A stretch of DNA of 64,000 nucleotides from TPA_inf: Saccharomyces (lineage: Eukaryota). The notes under the pieces were generated by a model, which was given only the letters and a program-made list of their open reading frames with translations, did no database searches and was not told the origin of the DNA. Below are positions 11,911 to 45,798 of the stretch, in pieces (the first letter of the stretch is position 1; each line of letters opens with the position of its first letter). The stretch is taken from the NCBI GenBank assembly GCA_000146045.2, contig BK006946.2:640001-704000 (forward strand), in the 5' to 3' direction. The position numbers and the translations under genes are program-made.

Positions 11911-12593
11911 GTTTCTAAAAACTGATTTTTGTAATATATATATAGATATCATATTTTCTTTTTAACTTAGGAAAAAATAACACCAAAAAAAAAACCACCA
12001 ATACTTTCACACATGAGAGGGCCTAGAGTAAAGTACCACTAGCCATGCAAAAAGCCCATGTACTGAGCTGATAGTCGTTACCAACCCTACATTTTTTTTC
12101 TGAAGCAATATAAGTGTTACCCGAAAAGTATGAATATTATTTTTTCTTCGTACCGTTATATCTTTTTCTGGTATATAAAGCGGTGAGTTTAGAAGAAGTT
12201 CCTGTGGTGCAAGAATCTTTATTGGTATTTAAAAAATCTTTTCTTTTCCTTTTTTTGGTTTTTTGAAAAAGGGTAATAATGTCTTTTATAATAGACACCC
12301 AGAGTCACGATTCGTCTTGGTTTTAGAGATTCTGTTTCGACAGTTTTTTTAGGCGGTGGACGTATATAGTTTACTTAATCGTTTACTATACGGTGGAGTA
12401 CTAATACTATTTCACTGTCGTGCTCGCGGTTGATCTTAGATAAATATATTTCTTTTTCATAAAGAAAGTGAGTGGATCTTCCCTGGAAGTACGAATAATG
12501 TACTTATGATTAGATTCTCTTCACGCACATACCTTTTTTTTTTTTTCAATTGCTAGTTCATACATACGTAGAAAGAAGGGCCAATTGGAAGCC

Positions 12594-25844: not shown

Positions 25845-27044
25845 TTAAATGTCAATTTCTTCAGTTTCTAGCCCGCAGTCTGTACATCTTCTTCTTTGAA
25901 TTTGATAACCGTCTTCATCAATACCTCCATCAACTGGATCACTAAAATGATGAATATGGGCTTTCCCATGCTTCTTTTCTCTTAATCTATTAGTATATTC
26001 TTGAGCTCTTGTTTTCAGTCGCATTTCCTTGATTTTCTTTTCGTATTTTTTCTCCCTTCTGTGAGCCTTTCCTTCTTCACGACGTTGCCATTCCTCATCT
26101 AAACCTTCTTCTCCACCCCATTTCTTGAACGCAAAGGCTTCCACTTCACATCTAACAAATAGTTGCATTCTTGCAAATGTCCCCGAATGAGGGTTCGGCT
26201 TTTCTAGTCTATGAAAGAGATCCTCATCATTCAATTCGGGGTCTGTTAAAAAGTAATCTTCCTTACATTCTGTTTTCGTCAGTAGTGCATACTTTTCTGG
26301 ATGCTCCTTAGAACACTGTTTACAAACTTGTAACTTGAACACATCATGTAGCACAGGATCCATCTCAATATTAATATGACATTCAATACATTTCGGCGCC
26401 TTTGAAATATGCTCTGGAGGAGGTGCATTTTCGTACAGCATTTTCCGTTCAAGTTGTTCCTTTTTCCAGTCCTGTAGTGTCTTCTGCTTTTTAGATCCAA
26501 ACTCAGATTCAAATTCTTGGTCATCGGTAAAGTCAGAATTTGGAAGCTTGTCCTTAGGGTTGATATAACCACCATTCAAGTTCTGCATGGTGGCAAAATC
26601 GTACTCAATGTAATCTTGTTTCCTTATGCTAGGTCTGATTCTATCCGTTGGCCTTTTGTCGAGTACCGACGCATCCCTTTTACTTCCATCAACTACTCCG
26701 CTACCATAAAGTGAAGTAGTGTTAGTGTTAGTGTTAGCAAGCGCAGACGGTTGTCCATTATGATTTGGCACATGTACTGCGGCTGCTGCATTATCATCCC
26801 GATTGCTGCCACTAGTAACTGCGAGAGGCCGGGTTTTTAAAGGTTCATTCCTACTTTCTATTCGATTCAATTGGTCGCTACTCAGTATTCCCCTTTTTCT
26901 TAACCGTTCTATTGCTAATTTCCTGTTAGCCTCCTGCACAGCTCATCTCATCGTTAAATTGTTAGTAAAAAGAAACCCACGGTTAAAATACAAACACAGA
27001 ATCATTTTCACACATACTAGTTTGGCCTTTTGTTCGGGAGTCAT
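25845..27044 (-). CDS. RAD14: NER damage-recognition protein Rad14 (XPA homologue), spliced: exon 1 27018..27044, intron 26934..27017, exon 2 25845..26933, giving 371 aa
   Basis: Exon 1 ATGACTCCCGAACAAAAGGCCAAACTA (MTPEQKAKL) is followed by GTATGTG. The branch point TACTAAC is plus-strand gttagta at 26961..26967. After the 3' CAG, exon 2 begins EANRKLAIERL. The XPA-type zinc finger CIECHINIEMDPVLHDVFKLQVCKQC is present. The ORF-track M at 26939 is an intronic GTG. Confidence 0.93.
26934..27017 (-). other. RAD14 intron, 84 nt
   Basis: GTATGT 5' splice site, TACTAAC branch point, CAG 3' splice site. It follows a 27-nt first exon. Confidence 0.88.
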
Positions 27045-43100: not shown

Positions 43101-44014
43101 CTTACATATACATCATCCGGCACAGATACAAAGTTCGTCTTGTTATCGATATGGATAGTGTCTATATGTGAACCAGACCAAGGGATACACGGGATTTTAG
43201 CGCTTTGTGCTACAATAGTGGAAGAAATCTTGTCACCCAATGATCTCATAGCGCGTCCAGGAGGACCAATGAATAGTATTTTCCTTTGTGAACTAGCTAA
43301 CAGCTCAGGAAGACACGGATTTTCAGAAGCATGGCCCCATCCAGCCCAGACCGCATCCACATCCGTTTGCTCTGCCACGTCCAGTATTAAGTCTATGTTG
43401 GCGTAATTGTTGTTGTTGGTACCCCCTGGTACCTGCACATATTGGTCTGCCATTCTAATATACTCCGAATTTGCGTGTAAATCATCAGGTGTCGCCATTA
43501 CCACGAATTGAATGATTTTTTCATCATTGAACGTCTCGTACGCCCATTTTCTTATAGATCTCATTTCTTTCACCGCAGCAATACCATTGTTTGCTATTAA
43601 GATCTTTGAAATAACAGTATGTCCACCACGTAAATCAACAAAATCTCTTAATATTGAAGGTTGGGCACTTTCCACAGTATTTAGCCCTATGAACTGGGGC
43701 GGTAATCGAGTATGTTTATGAATATTGCCTCGATCCACATAATTGGAATACCTTCTTCTAGATGGAAAATTCAAACCTATTCGAGATGAATGCCTATACG
43801 AATGGGCAAAAATGCGTTTTCTGTATTCAGGGCGCTGTCCTTTCAACCGTACTATCTGGCTGCCCGTTATATTATAGAATCGATAAGGATCCAAATATAA
43901 CGCGAGCTTGTACTGTCCTATTCGAATGCAAGTAATTGTGAATATGGTAATGTAAAAGTGAGAATGTATCCGGCGAGCCCCCCAGCTTTGGCCGTGTGTA
44001 ATTGTCTTCCCTTT
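37193..44014 (-). CDS. HFA1: Mitochondrial acetyl-CoA carboxylase Hfa1. The frame is open for 2273 codons from the upstream stop. The first in-frame ATG is at 43564, which leaves 2123 aa. Translation is reported to start at a non-AUG codon within the upstream extension.
   Basis: The frame is continuous from the stop TAG (plus-strand cta at 44015..44017) down to 37193. Biotin carboxylase, BCCP (AEIEIMKMQMPL biotinyl-lysine motif) and carboxyltransferase domains are present. The conserved BC N-terminal motif ISKILIANNGIAAVKE lies upstream of the first ATG. A basic Arg/Ser-rich presequence-like segment lies further upstream. Confidence 0.9.
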   Translation of the reverse strand, partial: KGKTITHGQSWGARRIHSHFYITIFTITCIRIGQYKLALYLDPYRFYNITGSQIVRLKGQRPEYRKRIFAHSYRHSSRIGLNFPSRRRYSNYVDRGNIHKHTRLPPQFIGLNTVESAQPSILRDFVDLRGGHTVISKILIANNGIAAVKEMRSIRKWAYETFNDEKIIQFVVMATPDDLHANSEYIRMADQYVQVPGGTNNNNYANIDLILDVAEQTDVDAVWAGWGHASENPCLPELLASSQRKILFIGPPGRAMRSLGDKISSTIVAQSAKIPCIPWSGSHIDTIHIDNKTNFVSVPDDVYVRGCCSSPEDALEKAKLIGFPVMIKASEGGGGKGIRRVDNEDDFIALYRQAVNETPGSPMFVMKVVTDARHLEVQLLADQYGTNITLFGRDCSIQRRHQKIIEEAPVTITKPETFQRMERAAIRLGELVGYVSAGTVEYLYSPKDDKFYFLELNPRLQVEHPTTEMISGVNLPATQLQIAMGIPMHMISDIRKLYGLDPTGTSYIDFKNLKRPSPKGHCISCRITSEDPNEGFKPSTGKIHELNFRSSSNVWGYFSVGNNGAIHSFSDSQFGHIFAVGNDRQDAKQNMVLALKDFSIRGEFKTPIEYLIELLETRDFESNNISTGWLDDLILKNLSSDSKLDPTLAIICGAAMKAYVFTEKVRNKYLELLRRGQVPPKDFLKTKFPVDFIFDNNRYLFNVAQSSEEQFILSINKSQCEVNVQKLSSDCLLISVDGKCHTVYWKDDIRGTRLSIDSNTIFLEAELNPTQVISPTPGKLVKYLVRSGDHVFAGQQYAEIEIMKMQMPLVAKSDGVIELLRQPGSIIEAGDVIAKLTLDSPSKANESSLYRGELPVLGPPLIEGSRPNHKLRVLINRLENILNGYHENSGIETTLKELIKILRDGRLPYSEWDSQISTVRNRLPRQLNEGLGNLVKKSVSFPAKELHKLMKRYLEENTNDHVVYVALQPLLKISERYSEGLANHECEIFLKLIKKYYAVEKIFENHDIHEERNLLNLRRKDLTNLKKILCISLSHANVVAKNKLVTAILHEYEPLCQDSSKMSLKFRAVIHDLASLESKWAKEVAVKARSVLLRGIFPPIKKRKEHIKTLLQLHIKDTGAENIHSRNIYSCMRDFGNLIHSNLIQLQDLFFFFGHQDTALSSIASEIYARYAYGNYQLKSIKIHKGAPDLLMSWQFSSLRNYLVNSDGESDEFTKLSKPPSTSGKSSANSFGLLVNMRALESLEKTLDEVYEQIHIPEERLSSGENSLIVNILSPIRYRSENDLIKTLKIKLHENERGLSKLKVNRITFAFIAANAPAVKFYSFDGTTYDEISQIRNMDPSYEAPLELGKMSNYKIRSLPTYDSSIRIFEGISKFTPLDKRFFVRKIINSFMYNDQKTTEENLKAEINAQVVYMLEHLGAVDISNSDLNHIFLSFNTVLNIPVHRLEEIVSTILKTHETRLFQERITDVEICISVECLETKKPAPLRLLISNKSGYVVKIETYYEKIGKNGNLILEPCSEQSHYSQKSLSLPYSVKDWLQPKRYKAQFMGTTYVYDFPGLFHQAAIQQWKRYFPKHKLNDSFFSWVELIEQNGNLIKVNREPGLNNIGMVAFEIMVQTPEYPEGRNMIVISNDITYNIGSFGPREDLFFDRVTNYARERGIPRIYLAANSGAKLGIAEELIPLFRVAWNDPSDPTKGFQYLYLAPKDMQLLKDSGKGNSVVVEHKMVYGEERYIIKAIVGFEEGLGVECLQGSGLIAGATSKAYRDIFTITAVTCRSVGIGSYLVRLGQRTIQVEDKPIILTGASAINKVLGTDIYTSNLQIGGTQIMYKNGIAHLTASNDMKAIEKIMTWLSYVPAKRDMSPPLLETMDRWDRDVDFKPAKQVPYEARWLIEGKWDSNNNFQSGLFDKDSFFETLSGWAKGVIVGRARLGGIPVGVIAVETKTIEEIIPADPANLDSSEFSVKEAGQVWYPNSAFKTAQTINDFNYGEQLPLIILANWRGFSGGQRDMYNEVLKYGSFIVDALVDYKQPILIYIPPFGELRGGSWVVIDPTINPEQMEMYADVESRGGVLEPDGVVSIKYRKEKMIETMIRLDSTYGHLRRTLTEKKLSLEKQNDLTKRLKIRERQLIPIYNQISIQFADLHDRSTRMLVKGVIRNELEWKKSRRFLYWRLRRRLNEGQVIKRLQKKTCDNKTKMKYDDLLKIVQSWYNDLDVNDDRAVVEFIERNSKKIDKNIEEFEISLLIDELKKKFEDRRGNIVLEELTRLVDSKRKR

Positions 44015-44466
44015 CTACCCAAGATGACTTCTTCTTTATCATTCTTCATTATTCATCTTTTCTTGTCATCTGCCGCCCACCCATTTTAGTTACCCTAACG
44101 GAAACATTGATGAATGATGCTATTATTACTGTCATAAGCAATAAAAAGAGAGGTTCCTACTACTTCTCCCGTGGAAAGCTAGCGATAGCCTTGTACTCTA
44201 TCTCACTTTCAGAATGCGTACACATTTATGTTTAAAGAGGCGTTTTGTGCTAGTTTTGTCTCAACGTGTATTTTATCGGTTGTAATTGTACTGACAATTT
44301 TCGGGCCTCGTTTGGCTGTCGCACTGAAATCTTCGACAGGGTATCGAAGAACGATACAACGATATGCCTATAAAGGTTAGTTAGCCATGATATTACTTCC
44401 TGGTTAGCTGGTGCGCTTCTTAGTCCTAACTTGCAAATTTATATCTACGTATAGAAAACTGTCAAT

Positions 44467-45798
44467 ATGTCATTACCGTTCTTAACTTCTGCACCGGGAA
44501 AGGTTATTATTTTTGGTGAACACTCTGCTGTGTACAACAAGCCTGCCGTCGCTGCTAGTGTGTCTGCGTTGAGAACCTACCTGCTAATAAGCGAGTCATC
44601 TGCACCAGATACTATTGAATTGGACTTCCCGGACATTAGCTTTAATCATAAGTGGTCCATCAATGATTTCAATGCCATCACCGAGGATCAAGTAAACTCC
44701 CAAAAATTGGCCAAGGCTCAACAAGCCACCGATGGCTTGTCTCAGGAACTCGTTAGTCTTTTGGATCCGTTGTTAGCTCAACTATCCGAATCCTTCCACT
44801 ACCATGCAGCGTTTTGTTTCCTGTATATGTTTGTTTGCCTATGCCCCCATGCCAAGAATATTAAGTTTTCTTTAAAGTCTACTTTACCCATCGGTGCTGG
44901 GTTGGGCTCAAGCGCCTCTATTTCTGTATCACTGGCCTTAGCTATGGCCTACTTGGGGGGGTTAATAGGATCTAATGACTTGGAAAAGCTGTCAGAAAAC
45001 GATAAGCATATAGTGAATCAATGGGCCTTCATAGGTGAAAAGTGTATTCACGGTACCCCTTCAGGAATAGATAACGCTGTGGCCACTTATGGTAATGCCC
45101 TGCTATTTGAAAAAGACTCACATAATGGAACAATAAACACAAACAATTTTAAGTTCTTAGATGATTTCCCAGCCATTCCAATGATCCTAACCTATACTAG
45201 AATTCCAAGGTCTACAAAAGATCTTGTTGCTCGCGTTCGTGTGTTGGTCACCGAGAAATTTCCTGAAGTTATGAAGCCAATTCTAGATGCCATGGGTGAA
45301 TGTGCCCTACAAGGCTTAGAGATCATGACTAAGTTAAGTAAATGTAAAGGCACCGATGACGAGGCTGTAGAAACTAATAATGAACTGTATGAACAACTAT
45401 TGGAATTGATAAGAATAAATCATGGACTGCTTGTCTCAATCGGTGTTTCTCATCCTGGATTAGAACTTATTAAAAATCTGAGCGATGATTTGAGAATTGG
45501 CTCCACAAAACTTACCGGTGCTGGTGGCGGCGGTTGCTCTTTGACTTTGTTACGAAGAGACATTACTCAAGAGCAAATTGACAGCTTCAAAAAGAAATTG
45601 CAAGATGATTTTAGTTACGAGACATTTGAAACAGACTTGGGTGGGACTGGCTGCTGTTTGTTAAGCGCAAAAAATTTGAATAAAGATCTTAAAATCAAAT
45701 CCCTAGTATTCCAATTATTTGAAAATAAAACTACCACAAAGCAACAAATTGACGATCTATTATTGCCAGGAAACACGAATTTACCATGGACTTCATAA
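44467..45798 (+). CDS. ERG12: Mevalonate kinase Erg12, 443 aa
   Basis: ATG 44467 verified. N-terminal APGKVIIFGEHSAV and the GHMP-kinase motif PIGAGLGSSAS are present. Confidence 0.95.
   Translation: MSLPFLTSAPGKVIIFGEHSAVYNKPAVAASVSALRTYLLISESSAPDTIELDFPDISFNHKWSINDFNAITEDQVNSQKLAKAQQATDGLSQELVSLLDPLLAQLSESFHYHAAFCFLYMFVCLCPHAKNIKFSLKSTLPIGAGLGSSASISVSLALAMAYLGGLIGSNDLEKLSENDKHIVNQWAFIGEKCIHGTPSGIDNAVATYGNALLFEKDSHNGTINTNNFKFLDDFPAIPMILTYTRIPRSTKDLVARVRVLVTEKFPEVMKPILDAMGECALQGLEIMTKLSKCKGTDDEAVETNNELYEQLLELIRINHGLLVSIGVSHPGLELIKNLSDDLRIGSTKLTGAGGGGCSLTLLRRDITQEQIDSFKKKLQDDFSYETFETDLGGTGCCLLSAKNLNKDLKIKSLVFQLFENKTTTKQQIDDLLLPGNTNLPWTS

Follow-up and report, generated by a model that had tools for sequence, protein, structure and literature searches.

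The gene on the minus strand is HFA1 (YMR207C), which encodes the mitochondrial acetyl-CoA carboxylase (ACC) of S. cerevisiae; it lies in a window of 64 kb (64,000 nt), by which we mean the whole stretch of DNA that was analysed. An earlier description of HFA1 and of its product, Hfa1p, was reportedly given by Hoja et al. in 2004. Upstream of the first in-frame ATG the frame remains open as far as an in-frame TAG, and the following features define it:

44015..44017, minus strand: in-frame TAG, the 5' limit of the HFA1 open frame (sequence).
43565..44014, minus strand: 5' extension of HFA1, 150 sense codons free of both ATG and stop codons (sequence; probability of no stop ~4e-5).
43562..43564, minus strand: first in-frame ATG, annotated as the start but not functional as such (sequence; species alignment; PMC4263661).
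37193..43561, minus strand: remainder of the HFA1 ORF, with the BC, BT, biotinyl, ACC_central, and carboxyltransferase domains and the stop codon (Pfam).

At the composition of the extension, a stop-free run of 150 codons has a chance probability of ~4e-5 (4 of 200,000 shuffles were stop-free), and the two remaining frames of the same 450 nt contain 12 and 6 stops. ATG-less open runs upstream of the 26 ORFs of at least 200 aa in the 64-kb window reach at most 24 codons, with two exceptions: HFA1 (150 codons) and one intron-containing gene (118 codons). The original prediction had reported the 150 open ATG-less codons, the bounding TAG, the ATG at 43564, and an in-frame ATT at 43934..43936 lying 372 nt before that ATG (position -372), and every one of these coordinates agrees with the sequence. 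The extension holds 30 in-frame near-cognate codons, and only its 3' 124 codons (43936..43565) constitute the translated part. Seven ATGs are located upstream of the frame, at 44042..44135, the closest being 44042. The anatomy of the locus, the domain boundaries, and the comparative signature described here are observations of the present analysis.

The translated part of the extension is divided between two segments of different character:

43706..43933, minus strand: presequence-like segment (residues 2-77, the AUU being residue 1), with 17 R+K, 3 D+E, and a net charge of +14 (composition and conservation; import, PMC6582344).
43565..43720, minus strand: 52 codons homologous to the Acc1 N-terminus and biotin-carboxylase (BC) domain, the last 16 of which (from 43612) fall within Pfam Biotin_carb_N (Pfam, 1w96 alignment, conservation).

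The encoded chain matches all seven Pfam families of an acetyl-CoA carboxylase, namely BC (N, ATP-grasp, C), BT, biotinyl, central, and carboxyltransferase (E from 2e-18 to 4e-184), and is closely homologous to the yeast Acc1 structures 1w96 and 5csk. The Biotin_carb_N match opens 16 residues before the annotated HFA1 Met, the alignment to the crystallised yeast Acc1 BC domain (1w96) opens 52 residues before it, and the alignment of the Acc1 N-terminus with the HFA1 product runs from residue 58. Immediately before the annotated Met stands ISKILIANNGIAAVKE, the counterpart of which in S. cerevisiae Acc1 (fragment P0125) is ISKILIANNGIAAVKEIRSVRKW. A conserved BC N-terminal motif directly preceding the first Met had been predicted, and the comparison with Acc1 agrees; so does the expectation that an ATG-started product would be deprived of part of the BC domain, by the 16 residues of the Pfam match and, by 1w96 homology, 52.

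The 77 residues that begin at ATT 43936 carry a net charge of +14 in S. cerevisiae and of +13 or +14 across five Saccharomyces species, with 1-3 acidic residues, and this charge is held despite divergence of the sequence itself. The upstream segment that the original prediction had described as basic is indeed so (12 R+K vs. 1 D+E), although its description as free of acidic residues fails by a single Glu (in RPEYRK; GAA, 43828..43826). The mitochondrial targeting character ascribed to it is borne out by the net +14 over 77 residues and by published work, in which the N-terminal extension of Hfa1 was by itself sufficient for mitochondrial import (Monteuuis et al., 2019; PMC6582344). The MitoProtII score of the extended S. 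cerevisiae Hfa1 protein is only 0.73 (PMC4263661).

Transcript ends, candidate initiation codons, and neighbouring elements are as follows:

44057..44095, minus strand: conserved promoter block GGGTAAC...GGCGGCAGATGAnAAGAAAAG, 50-105 nt 5' of the major mRNA ends (species conservation).
43988..44005, minus strand: major HFA1 mRNA 5' ends, -441..-424 (published 5' RACE, PMC4263661).
43934..43936, minus strand: ATT (-372), the translation start, in the context ttcACAATTact with A at -3 (sequence; five-species alignment; stop-codon scanning, PMC4263661).
43892..43894, minus strand: TTG (-330), chosen by an ORF finder using the bacterial code and not a start (sequence; stops of PMC4263661).
43687..43740, minus strand: out-of-frame ORF of 17 codons (MWIEAIFINILDYRPSS) opened by the first AUG of the major HFA1 mRNA (sequence; kept in four of five species).

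The original prediction had referred to published work placing the Hfa1p start at a non-AUG codon upstream; this work exists (Suomi et al., 2014; PMC4263661), and its stop-codon scan assigns the start to AUU -372. In that work, HFA1 function is lost with stops at -372, -363, -360, -312, -282, and -273, and unimpaired by stops at -375, -378, and -381; RACE products were sequenced and revealed neither splicing nor editing. TTG -330 is not the HFA1 start, given the loss of function with stops at -363, -360, and -312, and its selection at 43894 in the ORF track is the artefact that it had been suspected to be. Stop-codon scanning reads out function genetically, and its result is compatible with minor products from other near-cognate codons; in the literature searched, we found neither TIS-profiling nor peptide evidence for the AUU start. 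The -372 start has been adopted by another laboratory to define HFA1 (PMC6353624). Others have demonstrated where HFA1 translation starts, where its mRNA begins, and that its extension functions in import, and the interpretation first given to the extension from the letters of the sequence is correct and already published.

The present comparison comprises five Saccharomyces species and leaves out S. paradoxus, S. mikatae, and S. jurei, the ERG12 proteins of which are either within the S. cerevisiae 90% cluster (the listed members of which are all S. cerevisiae or S. pastorianus) or absent from the collection. HFA1 orthologues were located via the divergent neighbour ERG12, protein searches having returned only fragments (< ~1,100 aa). 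Across all five species, both the ATT at -372 and the A at -3 are invariant. Upstream of -372, the fractions of invariant sites at the three codon positions are 0.46/0.27/0.31, with no periodicity and with indels that are not multiples of three; 3' of the ATT, conservation is periodic and the only indel is a single one of 3 nt. Invariance rises from 0.64/0.55/0.26 over -282..-142, resembling weakly constrained coding sequence, to 0.87/0.85/0.36 over -141..-1, where it matches the enzyme core. An in-frame stop lies 13 codons 5' of the ATT in S. kudriavzevii and S. uvarum, and the 12 codons that precede the ATT in S. eubayanus contain no near-cognate codon. At the position of the annotated HFA1 ATG, S. 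eubayanus and S. uvarum have ATA, which encodes Ile, the residue also present in Acc1. Alignment of the extension with ACC1 and with orthologues, the check that had been proposed, reveals coding-type conservation that ends just upstream of the ATT; on these comparative grounds, the five species independently support the published AUU start at -372. An ACC gene adjoining ERG12 was not seen in K. lactis, N. glabratus, N. dairenensis, or Z. rouxii.

We assign a probability of roughly 0.93 to the reading that HFA1 initiates at AUU 43936, yielding an import presequence followed by a BC N-terminus that is completed upstream of the annotated Met. The main mRNA begins ~52-70 nt 5' of this AUU. There is no ATG between the RACE 5' ends (44005) and ATT 43936, and all upstream ATGs (nearest 44042) are 5' of the major mRNA ends; thus, no AUG in any frame intervenes between cap and AUU. 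A scanning 43S complex would reach the AUU before any AUG, and some complexes would initiate there, as we assume with Met-tRNAi; the context is favourable (A at -3). The product would open with ~75 basic, nearly acid-free residues serving as a mitochondrial import presequence; the next ~50 residues would finish the BC N-terminus, and only then would the annotated Met be reached, its AUG being an ordinary internal codon, with Ile in its place in Acc1 and two sister species. Ribosomes that bypass the AUU would first encounter the 17-codon out-of-frame ORF at 43740..43687.

A different near-cognate codon (TTG -330, ATT -363, ATA -381, or ATT -387) might be the true or a co-equal start, given that 30 such codons lie in frame within the extension, that ATT -363 is likewise invariant, and that in S. 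kudriavzevii and S. uvarum an ACG directly before the ATT forms a tandem near-cognate pair. This is highly improbable. The six stops from -372 to -273 that abolish function imply that no start downstream of -372 is sufficient, and tolerance of stops at -375, -378, and -381 implies that upstream starts are not necessary; furthermore, ATT -363 has T at -3, and the upstream ATA and ATT codons are unconserved.

Initiation at an AUG upstream of the open frame would have to use the minor transcripts that reach further 5' (ends at -587 and -618), either through frameshifting or directly in frame, and we regard it as scarcely credible; for S. cerevisiae it is largely refuted. Seven ATGs are available, and an in-frame ATG upstream of the ATT, by 38 codons in S. 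arboricola and 37 codons in S. eubayanus, does open the frame in those species, the S. pastorianus annotation giving a 2278-aa product from it. However, the in-frame ATG of S. cerevisiae (44056) meets a stop after five codons and the remaining upstream ATGs are out of frame; the in-frame ATGs of S. arboricola and S. eubayanus are non-homologous in position, the sequence that they share being initially read in different frames; and S. uvarum, the sister of S. eubayanus, has a stop between the position of the S. eubayanus ATG and the ATT. The region of upstream AUGs bears the same non-triplet indels and lack of codon periodicity as noted above, engineered stops at -375, -378, and -381 are harmless, and the major mRNA begins 3' of all upstream ATGs (PMC4263661). 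For S. arboricola and S. eubayanus, an AUG start could operate if their mRNAs extend to the in-frame upstream ATG. The sequence P0123 was considered as a natural variant joining ATG 44049 to the HFA1 frame; it does so through indels in two homopolymers, a G-run and a T-run, and is for this reason treated as sequencing error.

Splicing of the extension, as a second exon, to an upstream ATG-bearing exon does explain the 118-codon ATG-less extension before ATG 26588 of the RAD14-like gene in the same window (GTATGT 27017, TACTAAC 26967, exon-1 ATG 27044), but GTATGT and TACTAAC, both present at that control, are absent from the minus strand over 43500..44466 and the HFA1 RACE products are unspliced (PMC4263661), so that for HFA1 this explanation has virtually no chance of being right.

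The start codon itself is embedded in a stretch of unusual constraint:

43858..43943, minus strand: block of synonymous constraint, -7 to +79 around the AUU (five-species alignment).
43858..43907, minus strand: predicted RNA hairpin, +30..+79; the 9-bp stem CGUUAUAUU/AAUAUAACG is perfect and the apex varies (folding, alignment).

Within the block (43943..43858), 74 of 86 positions are invariant in the five species, and, among its first 30 third-codon positions, 23 are invariant, against a gene mean of 9.3; this is the top value along 2,235 aligned codons. A metagenome scan with the invariant block recovered one S. cerevisiae contig only, 99.5% identical, and a relic of the block was sought upstream of ACC1 and none was found. 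Overlapping ORFs were considered as a source of the constraint and rejected, since indels in other species interrupt the two overlapping uORFs (ATGs 44049 and 44042), and the ORFs on the plus strand are short, with their starts inside the block.

The hairpin has its base at +30, 26 nt after the AUU, and its strong 9-bp stem begins at +35. Folded in four species, it has predicted energies between -14.7 and -17.3 kcal/mol and z between -3.4 and -4.2, and in none of the four did any of 200 shuffles reach the same stability; in S. uvarum the stretch is identical to that of S. eubayanus. Perfect 9-bp inverted repeats occur at only ~4 loci in the 64 kb. The fold of the whole leader (156 nt) is not significantly stable (z -1.5), the local hairpin alone being significant, and a search of 43500..44470 against Rfam gave no match with the E-value limit relaxed to 10. 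Of the 13 base pairs, 12 are constant, and the closing pair takes the forms G-C, G-U, or A-U, depending on species; the covariation is below significance, the same score arising in 380 of 500 shuffles.

We infer a role for the constrained block and its hairpin in selection of the AUU by the ribosome, and the block may be a cis-element for AUU recognition, one for which covariation is not significant. Tentatively, and with more doubt than confidence, we propose that -7..+79 is a conserved cis-acting RNA module (context, AUU, 26-nt spacer, and hairpin) that would tune the stopping of ribosomes at the AUU, and that would have been kept frozen, at synonymous sites too, because HFA1 depends wholly on a non-AUG start, unlike ALA1 and GRS1.

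The same constraint might instead act on DNA, as a cluster of sites in the divergent ERG12/HFA1 promoter or as the template of an unannotated transcript, which we consider unlikely. The block is 440-530 bp from the ERG12 ATG, on its 5' side, and other conserved blocks occupy the intergenic region that the two genes share; the absence of significant covariation in the RNA hairpin would suit a DNA-level element, as would the 26-nt distance from the AUU vs. reported optima of 14 nt and 18 nt, a spacing outside the 14-18 nt reference range (PMC5666671) for start-proximal hairpins that enhance weak start codons, a class associated with Kozak (1990) and PTEN-beta. On the other side, one edge of the block falls 7 nt 5' of the AUU and the other coincides with the hairpin's 3' end, which fits a translation-linked unit better than coincidence. 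The 86 nt also far exceed a typical binding site, substitutions are located in the hairpin apex while the closing pair varies among its three forms, and the block has neither an Rfam match nor a conserved alternative ORF, the overlapping uORFs being broken as described. If the block is a true RNA element, HFA1 would offer a natural yeast model, essential for respiration, of how mRNA sequence and structure tune the stringency of start-codon selection, and scans for synonymous constraint might find other non-AUG starts.

The non-AUG start of HFA1 is known biology, published in 2014, and that study treats the same gene and the same feature, including AUU -372, the 5' ends, the presequence, and the non-functional annotated AUG (PMC4263661). 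HFA1 is a solved case of textbook type, in which ATG-only annotation truncates the real protein and hides a targeting signal, and as such it is useful as a positive control in scans for non-AUG N-terminal extensions. The terms 'sensu stricto' and 'secondary structure' and the names of species never occur in the text of PMC4263661; it contains no species comparison or RNA structure, and the constrained block and hairpin are accordingly additions to it. No report of a comparable RNA element for a near-cognate start in yeast was found in the literature searched, and the block of synonymous constraint with its hairpin is apparently unreported.

The cytosolic paralogue ACC1 shares the BC N-terminus (66% identity over 109 aligned residues, ISKILIANNGIAAVKE included). 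Unlike HFA1, it starts at an AUG and has only 18 open in-frame codons upstream, in a region that displays no similarity to the HFA1 extension or block. Other yeast enzyme genes, too, gain a mitochondrial presequence through an in-frame near-cognate codon that precedes the annotated AUG, in an arrangement like that of HFA1 (PMC4263661; PMC6582344). Each of those genes uses the AUG for a cytosolic isoform and the non-AUG codon for a mitochondrial one, whereas HFA1 has the non-AUG start only (PMC6582344), and its AUG product would miss part of the BC domain. For the hairpin, the closest likeness is human PTEN-beta, in which, according to the account of Liang et al. (2017) given in PMC5666671, a well-contexted AUU initiator is likewise followed by a stable, evolutionarily conserved hairpin within the coding sequence. 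The PTEN hairpin starts 18 nt downstream and its requirement has, by that account, been proven by deletion; the hairpin predicted for HFA1 starts 26 nt after the AUU, is AU-rich, and has an energy of -15 to -17 kcal/mol.

On the minus strand, the HFA1 frame runs open from its first in-frame ATG back to a TAG through exactly 150 sense codons, with no ATG and no stop. This was the original prediction, and its placement of an in-frame ATT 372 nt upstream of the first ATG also agrees with the sequence. The features read at this locus, and at a second gene with a long open run, are:

44017..44015, minus strand: in-frame TAG 5' of the extension (sequence)
43936..43934, minus strand: in-frame ATT at -372 (sequence)
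43894, minus strand: TTG at -330, the start reported by a bacterial-code ORF finder
43564..43562, minus strand: first in-frame ATG of HFA1 (sequence)
25845..27044, minus strand: putative RAD14-like ORF; 118 in-frame codons without ATG precede the first internal ATG at 26588 (sequence)

Chance does not account for the open run at HFA1: the probability of 150 codons without a stop is ~4e-5 under local base composition, 4 of 200,000 shuffles are stop-free, and read in either of its other frames this 450-nt stretch has 12 or 6 stops. The window has 26 ORFs of 200 aa or more; open ATG-less runs upstream of them reach at most 24 codons, save at HFA1 and the putative RAD14-like gene, where 118 codons precede the ATG at 26588. 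A canonical intron accounts for the latter (GTATGT at 27017, TACTAAC at 26967, exon-1 ATG at 27044). A similarly spliced upstream exon is rejected for HFA1 because canonical splice signals (GTATGT, TACTAAC) were not found in its upstream region, and no splicing or editing of the mRNA was found by Suomi et al. (2014; PMC4263661).

The non-AUG start and the presequence of HFA1 are already known, and the AUU about 372 nt upstream named in the original prediction is that of the published account. In-frame stop codons placed along the upstream region at -372, -363, -360, -312, -282, and -273 abolish complementation of the hfa1 deletion, and complementation survives stops at -375, -378, and -381 (Suomi et al., 2014; PMC4263661); between the tolerated and the abolishing stops, no codon but the ATT at -372 is a plausible initiator. 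By 5' RACE, most mRNA 5' ends lie at -441..-424 (44005..43988), with minor ends at -587 and -618 (PMC4263661). Because the nearest ATG upstream of the AUU, at 44042, is beyond the published 5' ends of the major mRNA, the major leader reaches the AUU free of ATGs in all three frames. Hfa1 is described as produced exclusively from a non-AUG codon, and a split beta-galactosidase assay showed the N-terminal extension to be sufficient for import into mitochondria (Monteuuis et al., 2019; PMC6582344); the gene has since been defined with the -372 start (Li et al., 2019; PMC6353624). In the protein P0123, from a Logan contig (~43800..44049), a G-run indel brings the ATG at 44049, upstream, into the HFA1 frame, which is lost again at a T-run indel; P0123 most likely reflects homopolymer sequencing error and not a natural allele.

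Started at the AUU, the predicted product would be a complete eukaryotic acetyl-CoA carboxylase, with Pfam matches to Biotin_carb_N, CPSase_L_D2, Biotin_carb_C, ACCA_BT, Biotin_lipoyl, ACC_central, and Carboxyl_trans. The Biotin_carb_N match begins at ISKILIANNG, 16 residues before the annotated Met, homology to the crystallised biotin-carboxylase (BC) domain of yeast Acc1 (1w96, 5csk) begins 52 residues before it, and residue 58 onward aligns with the S. cerevisiae Acc1 N-terminus at 66% identity. Since both the Pfam match and the Acc1 homology begin before the annotated Met, an ATG-started protein would be without the BC domain's first strand region, in line with the original prediction. The 77 residues after the ATT contain 17 Arg+Lys, 3 Asp+Glu, and 9 Ser+Thr (net charge +14). 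The segment first described as free of acidic residues has one Glu (GAA at 43828..43826). In the other four Saccharomyces species the presequence region diverges in sequence, and its charge is still +13 or +14; each has just one acidic residue there.

Orthologous loci were fetched via the divergent neighbour ERG12, the protein database having given no full-length ACCs; they comprise S. kudriavzevii (L001, L011), S. arboricola (L003), S. uvarum (L010), and the S. eubayanus-type chromosome of S. pastorianus (L004). Among the species sampled, the head-to-head HFA1–ERG12 order is confined to Saccharomyces; in K. lactis, N. glabratus, N. dairenensis, and Z. rouxii (L006–L009) ERG12 does not adjoin an ACC gene. 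All five species share the ATT and the A at -3. On the 5' side of the ATT, invariance by codon position is 0.46/0.27/0.31, that is, without codon periodicity, and indels are of 1, 2, 4, and 5 nt; downstream, the sole indel is of 3 nt and invariance is periodic, at 0.64/0.55/0.26 (-282..-142) and 0.87/0.85/0.36 (-141..-1), compared with 0.80/0.88/0.34 in the 600 codons that follow the ATG. Alignment with ACC1 and Saccharomyces orthologues, proposed as a check on the original prediction, supports it in both the Acc1 identity from residue 58 and the periodic conservation downstream of the ATT.

At the place of the annotated ATG, S. eubayanus and S. uvarum have ATA (Ile), and in both the first in-frame ATG after the ATT is codon 146, 145 codons downstream of the ATT; Acc1 too has Ile at this position. 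An in-frame stop lies 13 codons 5' of the ATT in S. kudriavzevii and S. uvarum, and the 12 codons upstream of it in S. eubayanus include no near-cognate codon. In-frame upstream ATGs occur 38 codons before the ATT in S. arboricola (8574 of its locus, minus strand) and 37 codons before it in S. eubayanus (8565, minus strand), the latter being where the S. pastorianus annotation begins a 2278-aa Hfa1. As a conserved start these are rejected: they are non-homologous, they enter the shared sequence in different frames, and S. uvarum carries a stop in between. At position -1 of the AUU (43937), S. cerevisiae, S. arboricola, and S. eubayanus have A; S. kudriavzevii and S. uvarum, not each other's sisters, have G. 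With G, tandem in-frame near-cognate codons arise, ACG-ATT, reminiscent of the tandem ACG codons of ALA1.

Features conserved or predicted around the start, and others in the window, are:

43858..43943, minus strand: constrained block, -7 to +79 around the AUU, 74 of 86 positions invariant in five species
43907..43858, minus strand: predicted RNA hairpin, +30..+79 (fold prediction)
43687..43740, minus strand: 17-codon out-of-frame ORF, opening at the 5'-most AUG in the major HFA1 mRNA (sequence)
44057..44095, minus strand: conserved promoter block GGGTAAC...T(C/G)GGCGGCAGATGAnAAGAAAAG (species comparison)
44297..44350: second conserved intergenic block, 63–70% invariant (species comparison)
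12275..12532, plus strand: H/ACA snoRNA snR11 (full-length Rfam match, 293.7 bits)

The promoter block sits 50–105 nt upstream of the major HFA1 mRNA 5' ends and reads TGGGCGGC in S. cerevisiae versus TCGGCGGC in the other species; its GGCGGC core resembles the URS1/Ume6 site. The second block, 117–170 nt upstream of the ERG12 ATG, presumably belongs to the ERG12 promoter.

Nowhere in HFA1 is conservation at synonymous sites stronger than around the AUU. Invariance rises from 0.3–0.4 to 0.9 in the 30-nt bin starting at 43938 (-374), and 23 of the first 30 third positions from the AUU are invariant, against a mean of 9.3 (sd 2.7; z = 5.1) across every 30-codon window in the alignment of 2,235 codons; no window elsewhere exceeds 17, and the runner-up among 74 non-overlapping windows has 16. 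Codons with an invariant amino acid are nucleotide-identical in 18 of 22 cases in this stretch versus 511 of 1,442 elsewhere (Fisher p = 1.3e-5), and this excess indicates that constraint acts on the nucleotide sequence, not the protein. The constraint stops at about codon 24–26, and the 3' end of the block is that of the predicted hairpin. The ACC1 upstream region has no counterpart of the block, and Rfam gave no match for it. Suomi et al. left sister species and RNA structure aside (PMC4263661), and we found no report of the block and hairpin in open-access literature text; the block thus appears to add to the published HFA1 account, as a modest, testable lead in a finding otherwise already known.

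The hairpin (GCUCG-CGUUAUAUU...AAUAUAACG-G-G-C-AGC) has predicted free energies of -17.3, -14.9, -14.7, and -15.0 kcal/mol in four species (z = -4.2, -3.7, -3.4, and -3.5, respectively), with 0 of 200 shuffles as stable in each; S. uvarum equals S. eubayanus over its 50 nt. Substitutions lie in the apex, where the inner stems differ, and the closing pair varies (G-C, G-U, or A-U). Only about four loci of the 64 kb carry a perfect 9-bp inverted repeat with a loop of at most 30 nt. Caution is nevertheless due in interpreting the block and hairpin: covariation is uninformative, as 12 of the 13 outer pairs are constant (score equalled by 380 of 500 shuffles).

In the most likely course of events, judging from the published 5' ends and the sequence, a 43S complex from the cap would scan 52–70 nt without meeting an AUG; use of Met-tRNAi at the AUU is assumed. 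A fraction of complexes start at the AUU, helped by its A(-3) context, as Suomi et al. showed genetically (PMC4263661). The nascent presequence directs import, as shown by Monteuuis et al. (PMC6582344), and its putative removal would leave a complete BC domain. Complexes skipping the AUU would meet, in order, out-of-frame AUGs at 43740 (17 codons) and 43587 (5 codons) and the annotated AUG; since the first two precede the last, little truncated Hfa1 would be expected. The 17-codon ORF, found in four of the five species and missing from S. eubayanus, could capture such ribosomes. That the constrained block increases the share of complexes stopping at the AUU is a tentative reading, to which we give roughly one chance in three. 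The hairpin leaves the invariance of the 26-nt spacer between it and the AUU unexplained. The predicted HFA1 hairpin starts 26 nt after the AUU, farther than the enhancing positions reported in PMC5666671, which are 14 nt in the work of Kozak (1990) and 18 nt for PTEN-beta.
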